A stretch of 64,000 nt of DNA from a virus (IMGVR_UViG_3300025679_000005); one strand, 5' to 3'; shown: positions 43,378 through 62,543, numbered from the stretch's first letter. Program-made: numbers and translations. The notes: generated by a model from the sequence alone, not told the origin.

Positions 43378-43384
43378 CGGTGTA
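43378..43384 (+). promoter_or_regulatory. Putative phage promoter motif CGGTGTA
   Basis: Intergenic, starting 20 nt before the helicase ATG, which has no SD. The same heptamer precedes several other genes. Confidence 0.5.
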
Positions 43385-53891: not shown

Positions 53892-54533
53892 ATGCCTAGC
53901 CAACCCCCGCGTCGAGATCTTCTCCAAGAATGCGATGAGAAGAAGGTGCCCCTGCAAGAGATCTTGCAGGGGTGGTGCCCTAGGTGTGTGAATCCTGGGT
54001 GTACCCGTAGTCAATGGGGGAAGAGCAAGTTTGAGGACAGGGTCATCCATTGGGAAGACCGCCTGTTCTTGAATCCTGCCAAGCTGGATCCGACCGACCC
54101 TCGATTCAGTCTCATTTCTGCGAAGAATTTCTTGACAATCGCTCCTGGGACCCCAGGGTCTCCGACCTCGGATTGGATAGACCCCAGGCAGACCCGTGCT
54201 GAACCCGTAATGGTGCAGGTGCCGGTAACAGTGATGCCAGTCCCGACGCCTTACACCCCGCCTGTGGTCGTGGTGGAGGCGCCTAAGGCAGCAGAAGTCG
54301 AGGCGCAGGCTCCTACAGTCCTTGCTCCCGAGCCTGTAGTTGTGGTACAAAAGGCGCCGGTCACCCTACCTGCGCTCCAAAATACGGTAGTCAGACCTCA
54401 ACAAATGATCGACGGTGGGCTCAGGTCGAGTCAAACTTCGGTGTTAGATCCCTGGGCACCAAAGCCTTCACTGAGCCCTAGCGGCGAACGGGTCGTAACA
54501 CCTGGCGCCAAAATCAAGCTCGGCGGAGGCTGA
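53892..54533 (+). CDS. Hypothetical protein, N-terminal Cys cluster and Pro/Val-rich C-terminus
   Basis: C...WCPRCVNPGC. GAGG precedes the ATG. Confidence 0.65.
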   Translation: MPSQPPRRDLLQECDEKKVPLQEILQGWCPRCVNPGCTRSQWGKSKFEDRVIHWEDRLFLNPAKLDPTDPRFSLISAKNFLTIAPGTPGSPTSDWIDPRQTRAEPVMVQVPVTVMPVPTPYTPPVVVVEAPKAAEVEAQAPTVLAPEPVVVVQKAPVTLPALQNTVVRPQQMIDGGLRSSQTSVLDPWAPKPSLSPSGERVVTPGAKIKLGGG

Positions 54534-54539
54534 CTCAGC

Positions 54540-54546
54540 CGGTGTA
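54540..54546 (+). promoter_or_regulatory. Putative phage promoter motif CGGTGTA
   Basis: Intergenic, upstream of the AAGGAG RBS of the 54579 gene. Confidence 0.5.
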
Positions 54547-54578: not shown

Positions 54579-54743
54579 ATGAAATTCGAAGTCTTGATTT
54601 ACCCCGACGGCAAGCGCACCCACGAAGTGATCGAACGTACGGAGGGTGAGAACTGCGAGAAGATTCTCCAGTTCAACGCCGGCACGATGGTGTCCGATGA
54701 ACGGACCGGCCCCGACTGCGATAAAGTCGAAGAAACCAACTGA
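54579..54743 (+). CDS. DUF2997-like small protein (54 aa; not in ORF track)
   Basis: AAGGAG at 54565-54570. Translates MKFEVLIYPDGKRTHEVIERTEGENCEKILQFNAGTMVSDERTGPDCDKVEETN, fitting the I.PDG.V..EV....G..C pattern and the adjacency to a DUF1257-like gene. Confidence 0.7.
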   Translation: MKFEVLIYPDGKRTHEVIERTEGENCEKILQFNAGTMVSDERTGPDCDKVEETN

Positions 54744-54785
54744 TTCTCAAAGAAACAAAGAAACAAGGAAACGAAAGGAATAATC

Positions 54786-55109
54786 ATGTCGCACAAAGTG
54801 ACTTTCAAGTCAGAGTTCAAGGATGCGGAGTTGGTCAAAAATGCCCTCACCGCCAAGAAGTACACGTTCAACCAAACGGGCAACGTGTTCGCAATCACCA
54901 GTGGCCCGTTCAACCGCGCCACGCTCGACGCCAACACGGGCGAGCTGACTGGTGATACGGACTACCATCGCAAGGATGAGCTAGGCGCATTCCGTCAAGC
55001 ATACTCGGAAGCTGAGTTCCGTCGCCAAGCGGCCATCGAGGGTCTCACCATCGAAAGTCGTACGGAAACCAACGGCATCGTTCGTATGCTTTGCTCTTCG
55101 TACGGCTGA
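54786..55109 (+). CDS. DUF1257 (Ycf35)-like protein
   Basis: MSHKVTFKSEFKDAELVKNAL...FRQAYS...AAIEGLTI...NGIVRM matches the MSH...KT.I.D...L..AL / Q.Y pattern. AAAGGA RBS. Confidence 0.75.
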   Translation: MSHKVTFKSEFKDAELVKNALTAKKYTFNQTGNVFAITSGPFNRATLDANTGELTGDTDYHRKDELGAFRQAYSEAEFRRQAAIEGLTIESRTETNGIVRMLCSSYG

Positions 55110-55127
55110 TCTCTAGCTCTGGTCGTT

Positions 55128-55170
55128 AAACGGGCCCTGTCCTTTTTAGGATTAGGGCCCGTTTCTTTTC
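55128..55170 (+). terminator. Intrinsic terminator
   Basis: AAACGGGCCCT-GTCCT/TTTT/AGGATT-AGGGCCCGTTT stem followed by CTTTTC. Confidence 0.75.
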
Positions 55171-55177
55171 CATGTCC

Positions 55178-55184
55178 CGGTGTA
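55178..55184 (+). promoter_or_regulatory. Putative phage promoter motif CGGTGTA
   Basis: Immediately after a terminator and starting 22 nt before the AAA ATPase ATG, which has no SD. Confidence 0.55.
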
Positions 55185-55199
55185 AAGCAGAGCACGATC

Positions 55200-56768
55200 A
55201 TGAACGAAGAACTCAAATTCCACCTAAGGTCCCTCACTCGGTTCATCTACTTCGTCACGGAGGAAGAAGACCGCTTCTTGCTGGATATCGAGAAGACCCT
55301 GGGTCCGCTTAAGAAGGCCGCCACCTTCGTCTACAATGCGGCCTTTGGGCTGCAAGCCCTCAAGGGTCTAGCTGATGATTGGAAGTCCCGAGAGCACAAG
55401 GTCGACACCAACACCACGAATATCAACGAAGCCCTCATCAAGGTATACAAGGACGACCCCAGAGAGCTTCAGTTTTACTACGTCATTACGGATCCTGATC
55501 GGTATCTGACGGATCCCCATGTCGTGCGGCGCCTGCTCAATATCGCCCACCAGCTCCACAACAATAACGAGATCATCAAGGTCATCATCTTCGCTGGTCC
55601 CCGCCTCGTAATCCCGCAGAAGTTGCAGAGGTACATCGAAGTCGTTCACGATAAGGGTCTGACTGACGATCAGCTCCAAGACACTGTCTCTGAGATCTGT
55701 AAGCAGCTGACCATCGCCCCCACAGCGAATATCGCGAAGACCTTCAAGGGATTGAATTCCTGGGAAGTTGACGCAGCCATTGCTCAGAGTGTCATCCTCA
55801 ACCGTGTTCCCGGCAATAGCGAGAAGCGTATTGATGCCAAGCACATCGCTGAATTCAAGCGACGCCAGCTCAAGAAGACCGACCTCGTCAGCTACATCGA
55901 TACCAGCGAGTGGGGCTTCGACAGGGTCGGAGGAGCCGATCGGTTCAAAGCTTGGGCCAACAAGACCAAAGCTGCTTGGACTGATGCTGGGCAGAAGTTT
56001 GGCCTGGTGCCACCCAAGGGAGTCCTCCTGGCAGGGCTCTGGGGTTGTGGCAAAAGCATCTCGGTGAAAGCTCTTGGCAATGCCTGGAAGCTCCCAGTGG
56101 TTCAGCTAGAAATGGGCAAACTTCGTTCAAGTGGCGTCGGTGATTCCGAGGCCAACACCTATCGAGTACTCAATCTGATTGAGTCGGTGGCCCCTTGCAT
56201 CCTCTGGATTGATGAGGCTGAGAAGTCCCTGTCAGGCAGCGCTTCTTCGTCCCACAGCGATTCTGGAACGACCTCCCGCATGATCGGTATTCTCTCCACG
56301 TGGATGCAGGAGACGAAGGCCAGGGTCTGTACGGCCATGACCGCCAACACCCTGAAGAATCTGCCGACAGAATTCGTCAACCGCATGAACGAGCGCTTCT
56401 TCTTCGACCTCCCGGCCGAGGAGGAGCGCGTCGATATCCTCAAGATCCACCTGAAGGCCAAAGGTCAAGACCCCACCAGGTACAATCTGGCCAGCCTCTC
56501 GGAAGCCGCCAAGAACATGGTGGGTCGTGAGATCGAGCAGGCCATCGAAGCGGCAATGACGGAGTCCTTTGACGCCAACAAGGAGGGTCTGGACGGGGAG
56601 ATCCTGGAGAATGAACTCCAGCAGAAGCCCCGCATCTTCAAGACCATGAGTGACGAGATCCGGGAACTCACGGATTGGGTTGGCTACGATGACGAGGTAA
56701 ACGACGGAATCCGTGCTAGGTTTGCGTCCTCCGAACGGATTTCCCTATACCGCCAAAACAAAGCCTGA
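55200..56768 (+). CDS. Ycf46-type AAA+ ATPase (inactive N-terminal AAA-like module plus active AAA domain)
   Basis: IYFVTEEEDR N-terminus, VGGADRFKAW, Walker A GLWGCGKS, VGDSE, Walker B WIDEAEK, TAN...LP.EF..R...FFFDLP..EER.DI. Confidence 0.88.
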   Translation: MNEELKFHLRSLTRFIYFVTEEEDRFLLDIEKTLGPLKKAATFVYNAAFGLQALKGLADDWKSREHKVDTNTTNINEALIKVYKDDPRELQFYYVITDPDRYLTDPHVVRRLLNIAHQLHNNNEIIKVIIFAGPRLVIPQKLQRYIEVVHDKGLTDDQLQDTVSEICKQLTIAPTANIAKTFKGLNSWEVDAAIAQSVILNRVPGNSEKRIDAKHIAEFKRRQLKKTDLVSYIDTSEWGFDRVGGADRFKAWANKTKAAWTDAGQKFGLVPPKGVLLAGLWGCGKSISVKALGNAWKLPVVQLEMGKLRSSGVGDSEANTYRVLNLIESVAPCILWIDEAEKSLSGSASSSHSDSGTTSRMIGILSTWMQETKARVCTAMTANTLKNLPTEFVNRMNERFFFDLPAEEERVDILKIHLKAKGQDPTRYNLASLSEAAKNMVGREIEQAIEAAMTESFDANKEGLDGEILENELQQKPRIFKTMSDEIRELTDWVGYDDEVNDGIRARFASSERISLYRQNKA

Positions 56769-56803: not shown

Positions 56804-57979
56804 ATGCCCGACGAACTCGTAACGACCGAACACCCCCACTCGGGTTTGGTTCAACGACTGAATCCACAGGTACTGTCCAAGGCCAATCCGGAGGTTGTAG
56901 ACCTCCTTCAAGCCCGAGCAGACGTTCAAAGGGTGGAATCCCTCAAGGAGATTTTCCGAAAGTCCGTGACTGAGCAGTGGCCGGATGGTCGCCTTGAATC
57001 CGAGGTGACCGCCGGCCTGCGTCAGATCTGGCCTCACGGGGATCCTACGGAAGCGGCTCAGTTCCTAGCTGACGAGTACCGCCAGCTAGGAGAGGGCATT
57101 CACCTAGTTTCCACAGAGACCGGTCGGGTGACCCTTGTCCTGACTGAGGCGGACATCCATCAGCCGGCACCAGTTCCCAGGGAGGGCGGCGGCATGGCCA
57201 CTCCACTCCCCATCATCCGGCCGGATCTGTCGGCGGCATTGGTGACTTGGAACTACACCAATGCCAGGGAAGCTCAAGTACTGGAGGTGTTGGCTGCCAG
57301 AGGGCACCAAACAGAGCTTCTACGGGAATTGGGCGATCCCCGGCTCCTGGTTGCCTCCAGGGCGGGCCGCAAACACATAGTCGAGTCCTTGGCTCAGATA
57401 CCCCCCAAGGCCCTCTTGGAGTCAGCTGGCGGCACCTCGGCCGCGTTCCTTAAGTTCTTCCAGCTAGTGGACGAGCCTTTGACAGAGGTCCCGGCTGGTC
57501 ATGCCCACTTGAAAGGAGCAACCTCCGCCAAATCGACCATGGGTATCCAGGACATGCTGACCACGAACCTGTCTTACAACCGCCCTAGGGTTCTCCAGGG
57601 TGCCGTGACTCAGGGGTGGATCCGGGATATGGCCAAAGCTGTTTCTCAGTTCGCATACGCGCCCACGGCCGAAGAGGCTGAGCTAGATGACATTGTGTCA
57701 TTGCCCGCACAGTTTTGGATTCTACCCCCACAGCTGACGCGCCCTTTCATGCACATTGACCGAAAGATAACTGTCCTACCTGTAGATGACGCCCACCCAA
57801 TGGGATTGGCTGGCTCTGCCGGTTACATCTACGTGCCTTCCCAGTTTCAGGCAAAGAGTAGGGAATTCTTCAGCCGCTGGGAAACAGTAGCTAACCTCGA
57901 ATTCCAGATCTGGCTCCGTCTAGACGCCCTCCGACCCCTGACAATTACAGGTCAGGCTCACGAAGCCCAAGTGGTCTGA
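56804..57979 (+). CDS. Hypothetical protein (391 aa), possibly a diverged HK97-fold capsid-like paralogue
   Basis: The ORF is well supported. The fold call rests only on LVASRAGRKHIVESLAQ and the C-terminal AGYIYV...WETVANLEFQIWL...LRPLTI pattern. Confidence 0.55.
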   Translation: MPDELVTTEHPHSGLVQRLNPQVLSKANPEVVDLLQARADVQRVESLKEIFRKSVTEQWPDGRLESEVTAGLRQIWPHGDPTEAAQFLADEYRQLGEGIHLVSTETGRVTLVLTEADIHQPAPVPREGGGMATPLPIIRPDLSAALVTWNYTNAREAQVLEVLAARGHQTELLRELGDPRLLVASRAGRKHIVESLAQIPPKALLESAGGTSAAFLKFFQLVDEPLTEVPAGHAHLKGATSAKSTMGIQDMLTTNLSYNRPRVLQGAVTQGWIRDMAKAVSQFAYAPTAEEAELDDIVSLPAQFWILPPQLTRPFMHIDRKITVLPVDDAHPMGLAGSAGYIYVPSQFQAKSREFFSRWETVANLEFQIWLRLDALRPLTITGQAHEAQVV

Positions 57980-58007: not shown

Positions 58008-58274
58008 ATGGCCCTGTATAGCTTCATCGTCATAGCCCAGAAGCCTAGCGGCATTGTTGATCCCATGGTCATGCTCGACAAGGGCTTGAATGTGTTCACT
58101 GCTGAGATTCCAGACCTCGACGGCTTCCTGATCCAACTCAAGGATGAGGGCGTAGTCGTCAAAACAATGAATCGCCTCGATGACTTCGAAGCGGGCGATT
58201 CAAGTGATCTTCAATTACCGGGTGAAGACCTCTTCGCCCTGAATGGGAGTTTTGATGGCGAAGTCGAGACATGA
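58008..58274 (+). CDS. Small acidic hypothetical protein
   Basis: 88 aa ORF preceded by AGGGG. Confidence 0.6.
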   Translation: MALYSFIVIAQKPSGIVDPMVMLDKGLNVFTAEIPDLDGFLIQLKDEGVVVKTMNRLDDFEAGDSSDLQLPGEDLFALNGSFDGEVET

Positions 58275-58536
58275 TTCTGCACCTCCTAGGCAGAAACTAG
58301 AAAAAGAGGACGCCAAGGCGGAGATCCTTATCCTATTCAACCGCAGTATGCGCCCTCTGCTCATTGGGACAGCAGCTCTTCATCTAGGAAGCTTCTGGTC
58401 TATCGACAAGACAGAGGCGCTCTTCCACGAACTTGTGGGAGAGGGCGAAATACGAGAACTGAATTCGACCGAACGGCAATCCCACGACGTGACCCACGGC
58501 TATGTGCTCGTGAAGCGTTTCAGGATGCCAACGTGA
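58255..58536 (+). CDS. Small hypothetical protein, possibly winged-helix-like
   Basis: GGGAG precedes ATG 58255 (the track starts at 58243). EALFHELVGEGEIREL resembles a wHTH helix-wing. Confidence 0.5.
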   Translation: MAKSRHDSAPPRQKLEKEDAKAEILILFNRSMRPLLIGTAALHLGSFWSIDKTEALFHELVGEGEIRELNSTERQSHDVTHGYVLVKRFRMPT

Positions 58537-58697: not shown

Positions 58698-58704
58698 CGG
58701 TGTA
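58698..58704 (+). promoter_or_regulatory. Putative phage promoter motif CGGTGTA
   Basis: Directly after a stop codon, with 9 nt between the motif and the macrodomain ATG. Confidence 0.5.
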
Positions 58705-58713
58705 AGGGCTGAG

Positions 58714-59175
58714 ATGCCCATTACGTACTTGAAGGGCGACGCTACTCGCCCGAAAATAGGTGGCCCCACGGTGATCGCACAGGTGGTCAACACGTCGGGA
58801 GGTTGGGGTCGCGGCTTCGTCCTCGCTGTCTCCGAACGCTGGGAGGAGCCCGAATATGCTTACCGTCGATGGTACGCCTCCAAAGTCGGTTTCGAACTAG
58901 GGGCGATCCAGGTCGTAGAAGTCGAGCCCGAACTATGGGTGTGCAACATGCTCGCTCAGCAGGGCTACTTGACCACCAAGAAGAATGGCCCGCCAATTCG
59001 TTACGAGGCGCTCAGGAAGTGCCTCGTACAGCTCAACGAGAAAGCTATTGAACTAGGCGCTAGTATTTGCCTTCCTAGGATCGGCTGTGGCCTCGCAGGT
59101 GGGTCGTGGAATGTGATCGGCCCAATGGTCGAGGAAACGCTGGCTTCGAGGCCGGTTTACGTCTACGACCTATGA
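58714..59175 (+). CDS. Macrodomain protein (Poa1p/TARG1-like ADP-ribose processing family)
   Basis: ITYLKGDAT, VIAQVVN..GGWGRGF, VCNMLAQ, IRYEALRKCL, LPRIGCGLAGGSW. Confidence 0.9.
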   Translation: MPITYLKGDATRPKIGGPTVIAQVVNTSGGWGRGFVLAVSERWEEPEYAYRRWYASKVGFELGAIQVVEVEPELWVCNMLAQQGYLTTKKNGPPIRYEALRKCLVQLNEKAIELGASICLPRIGCGLAGGSWNVIGPMVEETLASRPVYVYDL

Positions 59176-59283
59176 CATATCCTGACCCACCTGTCTCTGA
59201 CGGTTGGTGTAGTATGTGGTGCACGATGACAGCACACCCCATCGTTCGTCTGTGTGTGCAGTGATCCGCCAAAGGAGAAACCC

Positions 59284-61698
59284 ATGTTCAGCTACAAAGT
59301 TGCAGACGCTCTATTCCTCGTTCGCCAGGCCGTTTCCACCGAAAAGTCGAAGCCGGCTGTCGTGGAAGTCCCGACCAACCATATTATGGTCATCGATTGC
59401 AGCGGTTCGATGAGTTACGAGCTGCCAAAGATTCGTGAGCAGCTCAAGAAGAAGCTCCCGAAGCTCCTCAAGGCCGAAGACACCATCAGCATCATCTGGT
59501 TCTCGGGCCGGAGAGAATGCGGGATTCTGCTAGAAGCGGAACCGGTAGCCTCCCTGACAGACCTCAAAGCCGTCGAAACGGCCATCGACCGCTGGCTGAA
59601 GCCGGTGGGGCTCACGGGCTTCAAAGACCCACTGGACCTCATCCCAGGCCTGACCGCGAAGATCTCGAAGACTCGCCCCAATAGCGTGTTTTCGATATTT
59701 TTTATGTCCGATGGTTGTGATAATTGTTCGTCCCGTCCGGAGATCATCAAGGCCGTTGAAGTCGCTGGCCAGTCGGTGGCTTCTGCCACATTCGTCGAAT
59801 ACGGCTATTACGCCGATCGCCAGCTCCTGGCCCAAATGGCAGAGAAGGCAGGCGGCTCGACCATCTTCGCTCAGCACTTCGACCAGTTCGAACCGGCCCT
59901 GGAAGCCAGTCTCCAGAAGCGCACCTCGGGTGCTCCCAAGGTCGAAGTCAAGATCACGGGTGACTCCATCTGTGGGTTCGCTTTCGGTTTCTCCGGAAAC
60001 GACCTCTTGACCTTCGCCGTAGAAGGTGGCGCCATCCACGCTCCAAAGGACCTGCCAGAAGTCTGGTACCTGTCCTCGAACAGTGTCGGAACTCAAGAGC
60101 TGGACCTTGTGAAATTCTCCGAGGCAGCGACAGGCTCGACTAAGACAGCCCCGGCCTCGTATTCGTCGGTGATGGCGGCTACTTACGCTGCGATCTCCCT
60201 GTTCTCCAATCGCATGAAGTCGGACGTGGTCCTGTCCCTGCTCAAGTCGATGGGCGATGTCACCTTCATCGACGCTTTTTCTACGTGTTTTGGTAAGCAG
60301 AAGTACAGTGAATTCGTGGAGGCTTCGCAGAAGGCCGCCTTCGATCCCAGCGTTCGCTTTACCAATGGCCGTGACCTCAACCGCATCCCCAAGGATGACG
60401 CCTTCACGGTTTTGGACCTGCTCCGTGTACTGTCCTCGGACGAATCCAATCGCCTGCTTCTTGACAGCAAGGACTTCAAGTACAACCGCATTGGCCGTGG
60501 TCAAATCGACTCCAGCTCGTTGCTCACGGATGAAGAGCAAGCCGAAGTCGCTCGCCTGACCGCGGAAATGACCAAGACCAAGGACGGCAAGAAGGTGGCG
60601 GACTTCGCTGCCAAGATCGCCACCATTACCAGCTCCAAGGACGCTCCCTTGAAGTTCGAGGCGACCCCGCTTCCGGACGGTTGCGAGATCAGTGGTCTGG
60701 TCTACAACGAGGAACGCCCGAACGTCAGTGTCAAGGTCTTCCGCAAGGGTTTAGTTGACCTTACAGAACGTAGGGCTAAGGCCACCAATGCTGGCAATGG
60801 CGACCTAGGCAAGATCCCCGCGGTCATCGACACCAACATCTGGCGTAACTACACGATCATCAAGGATGGCCTAGTAAATGTGGAGCAACTTCCGGTGCGT
60901 TTGACGGCTGGTACCATTCGCACCCTCAAGGACAAGGGGATGCCGATCGAGACCATCCTCGGTGTCGGTGGCGAGGCTCCTGAGACTGCACGTATCCGTG
61001 CTGCCAAGGCCTCGGACGATCGTGATGTCAACGTGGTGTTCGACCTCAAGGCCCTCCCCATCATCAATCGTCAGATGATCAAGGAGGCCAGTGCCCAGGT
61101 GCTATTCGAGAAAGAATACGCCCTGTGCAAGGCCCGTGCGGCCCAGAAGGTCTTCTCAGGCTTCTTGAAGGAGAAGTTCCCCAAGGTGTCTGCTGGCCTG
61201 TCTGAGTCTTTTGGTGAGCCAGCAACCCTGTGGCTCAAGGAGCTGGGAATCACTGATGGTGGCTTCAACCCCAAGAGCGTACAGGCAGAATCGACTGACG
61301 TGTACATGGGCAAGGAATTGAAGACCAGCCTCAAGGGATTGTCGACGATCCCGTCCGTGAACGAGGCCAAGAAAAAGATCGCAGCCGGAGGCAAGCTAAC
61401 CCCCTCGGTAGCCCTCATGGCCCCGTATCTTAAGGAAGTCGACGATTACCTAGCCAGTCCCGAACACAAGGCCAACGAAGCCGGCTTGGAGCAGTGGGCC
61501 AAGGACAAAGCGGAGACCGCCACGAAGACCGTCCGGGGGTTGCTCTTCGACCTCGCCAACACGAAATTTAGTATTCTGGTAGGTCAAATCTGGTTCACGG
61601 AGTTCAAGAGTTTGGATGAAGATACTTTGACTATCACCGTGGACGGCCAACAGATTGAGGGCAAAGTCCAAATGCGTGAGGTAGAGGTAAAAATCTGA
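59284..61698 (+). CDS. von Willebrand factor A domain protein (about 804 aa)
   Basis: MIDAS DCSGS and FMSDG. AAGGAG precedes ATG 59284 (preferred over 59254). Confidence 0.88.
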   Translation: MFSYKVADALFLVRQAVSTEKSKPAVVEVPTNHIMVIDCSGSMSYELPKIREQLKKKLPKLLKAEDTISIIWFSGRRECGILLEAEPVASLTDLKAVETAIDRWLKPVGLTGFKDPLDLIPGLTAKISKTRPNSVFSIFFMSDGCDNCSSRPEIIKAVEVAGQSVASATFVEYGYYADRQLLAQMAEKAGGSTIFAQHFDQFEPALEASLQKRTSGAPKVEVKITGDSICGFAFGFSGNDLLTFAVEGGAIHAPKDLPEVWYLSSNSVGTQELDLVKFSEAATGSTKTAPASYSSVMAATYAAISLFSNRMKSDVVLSLLKSMGDVTFIDAFSTCFGKQKYSEFVEASQKAAFDPSVRFTNGRDLNRIPKDDAFTVLDLLRVLSSDESNRLLLDSKDFKYNRIGRGQIDSSSLLTDEEQAEVARLTAEMTKTKDGKKVADFAAKIATITSSKDAPLKFEATPLPDGCEISGLVYNEERPNVSVKVFRKGLVDLTERRAKATNAGNGDLGKIPAVIDTNIWRNYTIIKDGLVNVEQLPVRLTAGTIRTLKDKGMPIETILGVGGEAPETARIRAAKASDDRDVNVVFDLKALPIINRQMIKEASAQVLFEKEYALCKARAAQKVFSGFLKEKFPKVSAGLSESFGEPATLWLKELGITDGGFNPKSVQAESTDVYMGKELKTSLKGLSTIPSVNEAKKKIAAGGKLTPSVALMAPYLKEVDDYLASPEHKANEAGLEQWAKDKAETATKTVRGLLFDLANTKFSILVGQIWFTEFKSLDEDTLTITVDGQQIEGKVQMREVEVKI

Positions 61699-62536: not shown

Positions 62537-62543
62537 CGGTGTA
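62537..62543 (+). promoter_or_regulatory. Putative phage promoter motif CGGTGTA
   Basis: Intergenic, upstream of the GAGG RBS and ATG 62571. Confidence 0.5.

Follow-up and report, generated by a model that had tools for sequence, protein, structure and literature searches.

One stretch of the virus IMGVR_UViG_3300025679_000005, a window of 64,000 nucleotides (nt) read on one strand, carries at positions 54579-56768 three adjacent genes on the same strand: a gene for a 54-amino-acid (aa) DUF2997-like protein, a gene for a 107-aa DUF1257-like (Ycf35-like) protein, and a gene for a Ycf46-type AAA+ ATPase. In cyanobacteria and plastids, Ycf46, Ycf35 (DUF1257) and DUF2997 have long counted as orphans. 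We put the probability at roughly 0.55 that the trio is a strongly diverged, huge-phage version of an uncharacterised Ycf46-like AAA+/DUF1257/DUF2997 module that acts as a replication-linked, cofactor-driven machine. The parts of this reading differ in strength. We are highly confident of the identity of the three proteins, and the model in which the small pair serves as a cofactor of the ATPase is tentative, a little short of an even bet. Here, we describe the evidence for the three families, their association in phages and cells, the layout of their genes, and the alternatives that have to be weighed.

The trio is borne on a contig of 465,854 bp. The phage side of the comparison consists of 50 related IMG/VR loci with an alignment of the ATPase; some counts refer to 40-41 distinct orthologues or loci. 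The close relatives are all IMG/VR virus contigs, of up to 529 kb and several with terminal repeats, so the label “phage-borne” given by an initial annotation of the window is reasonable. The phage identity rests on these relatives together with matches to the families phrog_8638 and phrog_2426; nine large open reading frames (ORFs) upstream of the trio gave no match in a PHROGs search. Among 50,697 phage records, no match was found by blastn with the region or by tblastn with the 107-aa protein.

All three ORFs lie on the plus strand where the initial annotation had placed them (Table 1), and the 54-aa ORF, which the gene track had missed, proves to be genuine. In 48 of the 50 loci, the ATPase gene is directly preceded by homologues of the 54-aa protein and of the 107-aa protein, which begins MSH as had been described. 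The ratio of nonsynonymous to synonymous substitution (dN/dS) is 0.10-0.49 for the 54-aa gene, in close pairs, and 0.11-0.38 for the 107-aa gene. The two small ORFs, like that of the ATPase, are genuine genes under purifying selection. The 54-aa family also has a fixed cysteine: Cys26 is invariant in all 62 DUF2997-type sequences compared, and G11 is present in 60 of them. Across the related loci, the small proteins are 24-55% identical, versus 40-67% for the ATPase.

The names DUF2997 and DUF1257 stand as statements of distant homology, although the window's own copies fall below the Pfam cut-offs. A Pfam search recognises the ATPase and many orthologues of the small proteins, and leaves the small proteins of the window unmatched. 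PF11211 (DUF2997) matches 14 of 40 orthologues of the 54-aa protein (best E 6.3e-7). For the 107-aa protein, 41 orthologues were scanned, of which 19 match PF06868 (DUF1257) at E <= 1, the best of them at 1.7e-4; no other family recurs in either set. When the two models were run against three whole relative records, each had a single best site per record, and that site was the 54-aa or 107-aa orthologue. The top score for PF11211 was 21.1 bits, versus a cut-off of 24.1, and the scores for PF06868 were 18.5-20.5 bits, versus 22.2.

Profile comparisons point the same way. With hhalign, the phage-clade profile of the 54-aa protein aligns with 22 cellular DUF2997 members at 95.9% probability (E 5.3e-9, 51 columns), and that of the 107-aa protein aligns with 29 cellular DUF1257 members at 97.1% probability (E 5.4e-11, 106 columns). 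Among the genome-derived members of the latter profile, 21 of 26 are confirmed by Pfam, and the 107-aa profile aligned with one Pfam-labelled DUF1257 member gave 89% probability. Hidden Markov models (HMMs) built from cellular sequences only rank the two small ORFs first of the 506 ORFs in the window, with E 2.7e-5 for the 107-aa ORF and a weak E of 0.028 for the 54-aa ORF. Judged by these profiles, the 54-aa protein is a distant homologue of DUF2997 and the 107-aa protein is a distant homologue of DUF1257.

The 107-aa protein shares with DUF1257 the hallmark positions M1, S2, H3, D59, Q71, Y73 and G86. Its AlphaFold2 (AF2) model has a mean predicted local distance difference test score (pLDDT) of 80, and its best ESM-Atlas match (template modelling (TM) scores 0.83 and 0.71, 105 residues) is to a cluster with PF06868 in 98% of its proteins. 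A Foldseek search of the model against solved structures returned nothing at E <= 0.001. Two other candidates were set aside. The best VIA-align hits of the DUF1257-like fold (Z up to 6.4; adaptin appendage, KA1 and BamC-type alpha/beta platforms) indicate no more than a common arrangement, and a PADLOC match of the 107-aa protein to RmrT (E 3.6e-4) was taken as chance.

The ATPase is, by sequence and structural model, a tandem AAA+ protein in which a module without a P-loop is followed by a motif-complete module of Cdc48-D2 type, which bears out the earlier description of a two-module ATPase. The N-terminal module is modelled with high confidence (residues 1-238, pLDDT 93.9), and its top Foldseek matches in the PDB are all AAA+ ATPases. 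It has no Walker A motif; E22 and E23 are conserved at the would-be Walker A position. Since the P-loop is missing, this module is unable to bind ATP in the usual way. The C-terminal module matches PF00004 (E 1.7e-20), and a sequence comparison with the PDB places it nearest to Cdc48/p97 D2 (E ~1e-40). Its motifs include Walker A (GLWGCGKS), Walker B (ILWIDE), the sensor-1 residue N383 and the arginine R395. Ten residues (G279, G282, G284, K285, S286, D338, E339, T381, N383 and R395) are invariant or nearly so in 40 family members.

The label “Ycf46-type” is likewise supported. The N-terminal module superimposes on ‘ycf46’ clusters of the ESM-Atlas, from cyanobacteria, with a TM score of 0.83 over 220 residues, and the whole ATPase aligns end to end with cyanobacterial proteins at ~31% identity. 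The family corresponds to phrog_8638 (E 1.2e-84). In a tree of the ATPases, the huge-phage clade is monophyletic on a long branch, and one of the two arginines of the second region of homology (SRH) has been lost in this clade, replaced by Asn. Longer ATPase ORFs occur in some relatives (~840-990 aa in L056, L059 and L060; 688 aa in P0124; 981 aa in P0125). The ATPase of P0062 carries an intein splicing domain, as does one Atlas cluster of related ATPases. The polymerase ORFs of L001 (77-2611) and L002 (16-2760) contain, by eye in translation, a large insertion resembling an intein with a homing endonuclease; the window's own ATPase and polymerase genes are without such an insertion.

Pore loop 1 reads SSGVG, with no aromatic residue, as first noted. 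The stretch G-K-L-R-S-S-G-V-G-D-S-E aligns with M-W-F-G-E-S-E of Cdc48 D2, placing Gly312-Val313 at the site of the aromatic-hydrophobic pair Trp-Phe. S311, V313 and G314 are invariant in 28 clade members. The wider Ycf46-like family has the consensus G-[KR]-[LV]-F-[GS]-[SG]-L-V-G-x-S-E, from which the window's sequence departs. Because Leu is normal at the canonical pore position throughout the Ycf46-like family, the lack of an aromatic residue is not specific to the phage clade. Two other changes are: the family Phe is Arg in 28 of 28 clade members, and the Leu is Gly in 25 of 28 and Ala in the other three.

The initial annotation had also stated that the three families co-occur. In the huge phages, a neighbourhood survey found the trio together in the 48 loci mentioned above. 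For cells, we surveyed one genome per prokaryotic species, which gave 80 loci with a related ATPase, and considered neighbours within 3.5 kb. DUF1257 is present in 26 of these loci and DUF2997 in 20, with both in 18; Pfam confirms 21 and 20, respectively. The co-occurrence claim is thus supported independently on the two sides. Loci with a small gene come from Myxococcota, Verrucomicrobiota, Planctomycetota, Chloroflexota, Bacillota, Cyanobacteriota and two archaeal metagenome-assembled genomes (MAGs). They sit in several separate branches of the ATPase tree, and branches from Acidobacteriota and Armatimonadota are without them. The cellular order is mostly AAA, DUF1257, DUF2997, and the phage order is reversed: DUF2997, DUF1257, AAA. 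Because the two orders differ, the association of the trio is not one inherited arrangement.

Similar arrangements are found in metagenomes. A profile search of 1.8 billion representatives returned many full-length relatives of the ATPase, and two of the four that were looked up have Pfam-labelled neighbours. One metagenome relative (L065) has the order AAA, 54-aa ORF, DUF1257, DUF2997; another (L064) has AAA, MSH protein, DUF2997, 76-aa ORF, DUF6744. In a Clostridia MAG (L129, 4799-5353), the gene directly after that of the ATPase encodes a 184-aa fusion, with DUF1257 at residues 1-122 and DUF2997 at residues 122-181. This natural fusion suggests that DUF1257 and DUF2997 act as a pair.

The company kept by the module differs between cells and phages. 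Among 99 same-strand neighbour proteins from the 30 loci with a small gene, there are 7-8 matches to Radical_SAM/Fer4_12 and 10 to TPR. No radical-SAM, Fer4_12 or TPR companion is found near the phage trio. In five relative phage genomes, a radical-SAM gene is either missing or lies far from the trio; two of the complete relatives lack one entirely. A few of the cellular module loci (L070-L144) also have T2SSE ATPases, FHA domains or extracytoplasmic function (ECF) sigma factors as neighbours. In six cyanobacteria (L124, L126, L134, L136, L140 and L142), a DUF1257 gene lies ~200 nt downstream of a ycf46-like gene, and none of these six loci has DUF2997 beside the ycf46-like gene. This DUF1257 gene could represent another paralogue, different from the ycf35 found in the published duf2997-ycf35-fed7 cluster.

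The layout of the genes suggests how the trio is expressed. Strong Shine-Dalgarno (SD) sites had been noted for the two small genes, and these are AAGGAG, 8 nt before the ATG of the 54-aa gene, and AAGGAA, 7 nt before the ATG of the 107-aa gene. The sequence before the ATPase start has no SD-type site. A motif, CGGTGTA, lies upstream of both the 54-aa gene and the ATPase gene. Of 40 distinct loci, 35 have its core, GGTGTA, in the 80 nt ahead of the 54-aa orthologue, where chance would give 0.04 per 80 nt, and 33 have it in the 120 nt ahead of the ATPase start. CGGTGTA also precedes five other genes of the window; the motif sites, at 43378-43384, 54540-54546, 55178-55184, 58698-58704, 59205-59211 (TGGTGTA) and 62537-62543, are 15-48 nt ahead of the starts of non-structural genes. 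The motif is probably a promoter or start-site element of the phage clade.

Between the small genes and the ATPase gene, a 101-nt intergenic stretch contains a GC-rich hairpin (-40.2 kcal/mol, z -4.67 for the stretch). A comparably strong hairpin, usually followed by a T-rich stretch, is found in the same gap in nearly all related loci. A simple terminator scan misses the hairpin of the window because its tail holds only 4 T; the structure nonetheless looks like a terminator or attenuator. We infer that the trio forms two transcription units, not one operon. The unit of the small proteins, with strong ribosome sites and its own terminator, would likely yield more product, and the ATPase unit would have a short leader and no SD site. 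Since the same motif lies upstream of both units, they are probably co-regulated.

The trio belongs to a larger block of phage genes. Immediately upstream are genes for an SNF2-type helicase with inteins, a DnaB-like helicase, a primase zinc-finger protein and a 940-aa family-A DNA polymerase, the last of which is found upstream of the block in 49 of the 50 loci. The order in the clade is polymerase, 213-aa protein, DUF2997-like, DUF1257-like, AAA+, 391-aa protein and 88-aa protein; a winged-helix-like protein of 97 aa frequently follows. The 213-aa gene starts 22 nt after the polymerase gene, and its product has no recurrent Pfam family. It has an N-terminal four-Cys motif like that of zinc ribbons, a Pro-rich, low-complexity disordered middle, and a conserved C-terminal DPW...PGAKI(K/R)LG(G). 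Some copies end in LGG; a ubiquitin-like tail was rejected because extra residues often follow or the Gly-Gly is missing.

The 391-aa gene follows the ATPase gene closely, lying within 40 nt of the ATPase stop codon, or overlapping it, in 31 of 49 loci. By this spacing, the ATPase is coupled more tightly to the 391-aa gene than to the small genes, which qualifies the reading of the trio as one machine. None of 41 orthologues of the 391-aa protein matches a Pfam family, and an ESM-Atlas feature search gave scores of <=0.84, i.e., at chance level. A relationship to the DUF6744 protein, which has a similar place in L064, was rejected (hhalign probability 0.1%). Homologues of the 88-aa protein, which has no Pfam family, are present in 36 of the 50 loci, and those of the 97-aa protein in 20. 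Four members of the 97-aa family match EutK_C or HTH_69 winged-helix models, weakly suggesting a winged-helix-like protein. When 83 cellular and metagenome loci were searched with HMMs of the 213-, 391-, 88- and 97-aa proteins, no match came up. No protein of the block carries, as judged by eye, a C-terminal S/T-x-W-[EDN]-R-L tag.

Two further genes lie downstream. Positions 58714-59175 encode a 153-aa macro-domain protein that resembles the macro domain of the DarG antitoxin (PADLOC E 2.8e-10; phrog_335 E 1.4e-27) and could be a phage counter to DNA ADP-ribosylation of the DarT type. Positions 59254-61698, 2.5 kb downstream of the ATPase gene, encode a protein of 814 aa that matches phrog_2426 over its full length (E 4e-170) and has a weakly recognised von Willebrand A domain at its N-terminus; a gene of this type is within the 3.5-kb flank in only 2 of the 50 related loci.

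Table 1. Genes, protein modules and putative control elements of the trio and its immediate neighbours, in window coordinates.
Feature	Position	Strand	Remarks
213-aa protein gene	53892..54533	+	constant upstream neighbour, 50/50 related loci
CGGTGTA motif, promoter-like	54540..54546	+	38 nt before 54-aa gene
54-aa DUF2997-like gene	54579..54743	+	distant homology to PF11211
107-aa DUF1257-like (Ycf35-like) gene	54786..55109	+	distant homology to PF06868; starts MSH
GC-rich hairpin, 16 bp, then CTTTTCC	55128..55171 (hairpin 55128-55164)	+	between small genes and ATPase
Second CGGTGTA motif	55178..55184	+	21 nt before ATPase start; no SD between
ATPase gene, 522 aa	55200-56768	+	tandem AAA+
ATPase N-terminal module, residues 1-235	55200..55904	+	degenerate AAA+ fold, no P-loop
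ATPase C-terminal module, residues ~265-460	55992..56579	+	classical-clade AAA, PF00004
Walker A	56034-56057	+	within C-terminal module
Pore loop	56115-56150	+	within C-terminal module
Walker B	56199-56216	+	within C-terminal module
391-aa protein gene	56804..57979	+	constant downstream partner of ATPase, 49/50 loci (48 by first phmmer pass)
88-aa and 97-aa protein genes, overlapping	58008..58536	+	same run as ATPase

In the mechanism that we favour, the ATPase would assemble into a ring and spend ATP on remodelling or extracting a protein complex. The two small proteins would form a heterodimer that acts as a cofactor or regulator of the ring, made in excess from a unit of its own that has strong SD sites and ends at the hairpin. 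The 391-aa protein, whose gene appears translationally coupled to that of the ATPase, may be a further subunit or a client in the phage clade. The target is probably linked to phage DNA replication, given that the block follows the helicase, primase-domain and polymerase genes. In a bolder version, which we consider very unlikely, the ancient Ycf46/Ycf35/DUF2997 module would have been remade in huge phages as a replication-linked ring with an Arg-lined, non-hydrophobic pore and the translationally coupled 391-aa protein as a new subunit, directed at DNA-bound or strongly acidic replisome targets; the DUF1257-DUF2997 pair, which has an invariant Cys and an N-terminal Ser-His, would gate the ring as a chemical or redox sensor.

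Several observations weigh against the trio as a cofactor-driven machine. The window's 54-aa protein has no match to PF11211, staying below the gathering cut-off (24.1 bits), and the 107-aa protein has none to PF06868 at E <= 0.1 (22.2 bits); searches of PHROGs, NCBIfam and Pfam with these two copies gave no match. Two phage relatives, L054 and L055, have no DUF1257-like or DUF2997-like gene in place or elsewhere in the contig, these records (301 kb and 159 kb) being 62% and 33% complete. Both L054 (2929-6123) and L055 keep the polymerase, a 176-aa protein, the ATPase (40% identical) and a 366-aa counterpart of the 391-aa protein. Neither small gene lies within 3.5 kb in 52 of the 80 cellular ATPase loci, cyanobacteria keep a duf2997-ycf35-fed7 cluster without the ATPase (PMC4284462), and three cultured phages with a 26-35% identical ATPase (tblastn) have no DUF1257-like or DUF2997-like ORF beside it. 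Added to these are the apparent split into two transcription units and, by sequence, a clade pore loop lacking the hydrophobic residues that a polypeptide-gripping loop should have. The position next to the polymerase, being inherited within a single phage clade, says little in favour of a role in replication. Much of this would fit the small pair and the ATPase being functionally independent in the phage, with adjacency a matter of inherited order, the 391- and 88-aa proteins as the ATPase's partners, and the pair working elsewhere. The conserved hairpin between the units, the two relatives that retain the ATPase and 391-aa genes alone, the abutting or overlapping of those genes, the cyanobacterial cluster, and the many cellular ATPase loci with no pair nearby all favour independence. 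We nevertheless regard it as unlikely: in many cellular lineages that are not related to each other, the three families also lie side by side, in a different order; the same motif precedes both phage units, which are probably co-regulated; and 48 of the 50 loci keep the pair next to the ATPase although the sequences have diverged deeply and there are insertions at other points of the block.

The relationship within the trio could also run the other way, with the small proteins as clients or a regulated switch, i.e., the ATPase would unfold, disassemble or activate a DUF1257-DUF2997 complex, and in cells the same complex may be the substrate of a neighbouring radical-SAM enzyme. Such enzymes are frequent in the cellular modules, the near-universal Cys26 of DUF2997 and the N-terminal Ser-His of DUF1257 suggest chemistry or metal binding over docking, and strong SD sites together with a terminator of their own would suit small proteins produced in larger amounts than the ATPase. 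However, the phage trio has no radical-SAM gene nearby, and two complete relatives do without one entirely; we consider this alternative distinctly unlikely. It is very doubtful that the clade's ATPase has given up threading polypeptides and acts instead on nucleic acid or a highly acidic partner at the replication fork. The invariant Arg in place of the family Phe, the Gly in place of the canonical Leu, and the position within a replication cluster would suit such a substrate, but the ATPase belongs to the classical, protein-remodelling clade, with Cdc48/p97 D2 as its nearest relative, and p97 D1 is likewise without an aromatic pore residue, yet is part of a protein unfoldase. Moreover, a domain search found no DNA- or RNA-binding domain in the trio proteins, and the replication context is shared by descent. 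Lastly, a defence or counter-defence device would be in keeping with weak matches of the AAA module to the anti-phage ATPase IetA/IteA (E 2e-11 and 5e-13) and with the DarG-like macro-domain gene 2 kb downstream. We give this very little credence: the IetA matches reflect the generic AAA core (43 bits versus a cut-off of 510), no further PADLOC component was matched apart from the weak RmrT hit of the 107-aa protein, and the module is a chromosomal one, common among cyanobacteria and plastid lineages.

As a putative cofactor-driven machine, the trio can be compared with several known systems. It shares with the cellular Ycf46/Ycf35/DUF2997 set the three protein families, their same-strand adjacency, and an ATPase built from a P-loop-less AAA+ module and then an active AAA module; identity to the cellular ATPases is 28-38% over most or all of the length. 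As in their cellular relatives, the DUF1257-like protein begins MSH and has the D/Q/Y/G positions, and the DUF2997-like protein has the one invariant Cys. Unlike the cellular set, the phage small proteins fall below Pfam cut-offs, the gene order is inverted and two transcription units are likely, and the phage trio has no radical-SAM or TPR neighbour; its fixed neighbours of 213, 391 and 88 aa are new. The pore loop reads R...GVG versus F...LVG in the Ycf46 family, and one SRH arginine is Asn.

Mechanistically, the nearest studied machines are, by analogy, the type II classical AAA+ unfoldases Cdc48/p97/VAT with their dedicated cofactors. The likeness lies in tandem AAA+ modules, an active module nearest to D2, and small dedicated partner genes, as in cofactor-driven segregases. 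Unlike Cdc48/p97, the phage ATPase has no double-psi-barrel N domain, its first module is blind to ATP, its pore loop is non-aromatic, and its partners are unrelated to Ufd1, Npl4 or UBX; for the phage ATPase, the ring and the unfolding activity are predictions. ATPases of the same phrog_8638 family, 26-35% identical, are found in Rhodobacter phage RcKickapoo (gp63) and Mycobacterium phage Corndog (gp96), but in the three cultured phages examined no small ORFs adjoin the ATPase and the pore loops differ. The likeness to IetA/IteA is confined to the classical AAA core (43.5 bits versus a 510-bit cut-off), and there is no IetS-like protease partner.

DUF1257 and DUF2997 are hardly mentioned in the literature; the one study cited above merely lists the duf2997-ycf35-fed7 cluster (PMC4284462). 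New here are the inverted gene order, the two apparent units with CGGTGTA and a hairpin, the change in the pore loop, the coupling to the 391-aa gene, and the position after the polymerase. The case that the three families form one machine becomes stronger, since a rearranged set is kept by a clade of 100-530-kb phages and recurs across bacterial phyla and archaea, the small proteins occur fused, and of the tandem AAA+ modules of the ATPase the first is dead. For the phages, the trio would add an unexplained, predicted ATP-driven component to the replication gene block of huge phages. The phage variant is also a natural experiment, with an altered pore loop, no radical-SAM partner, a coupled, putative new subunit, and a small pair lost in two lineages. 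Its value lies mainly in this natural variation, which may help in working out the orphan function of Ycf46 and Ycf35.

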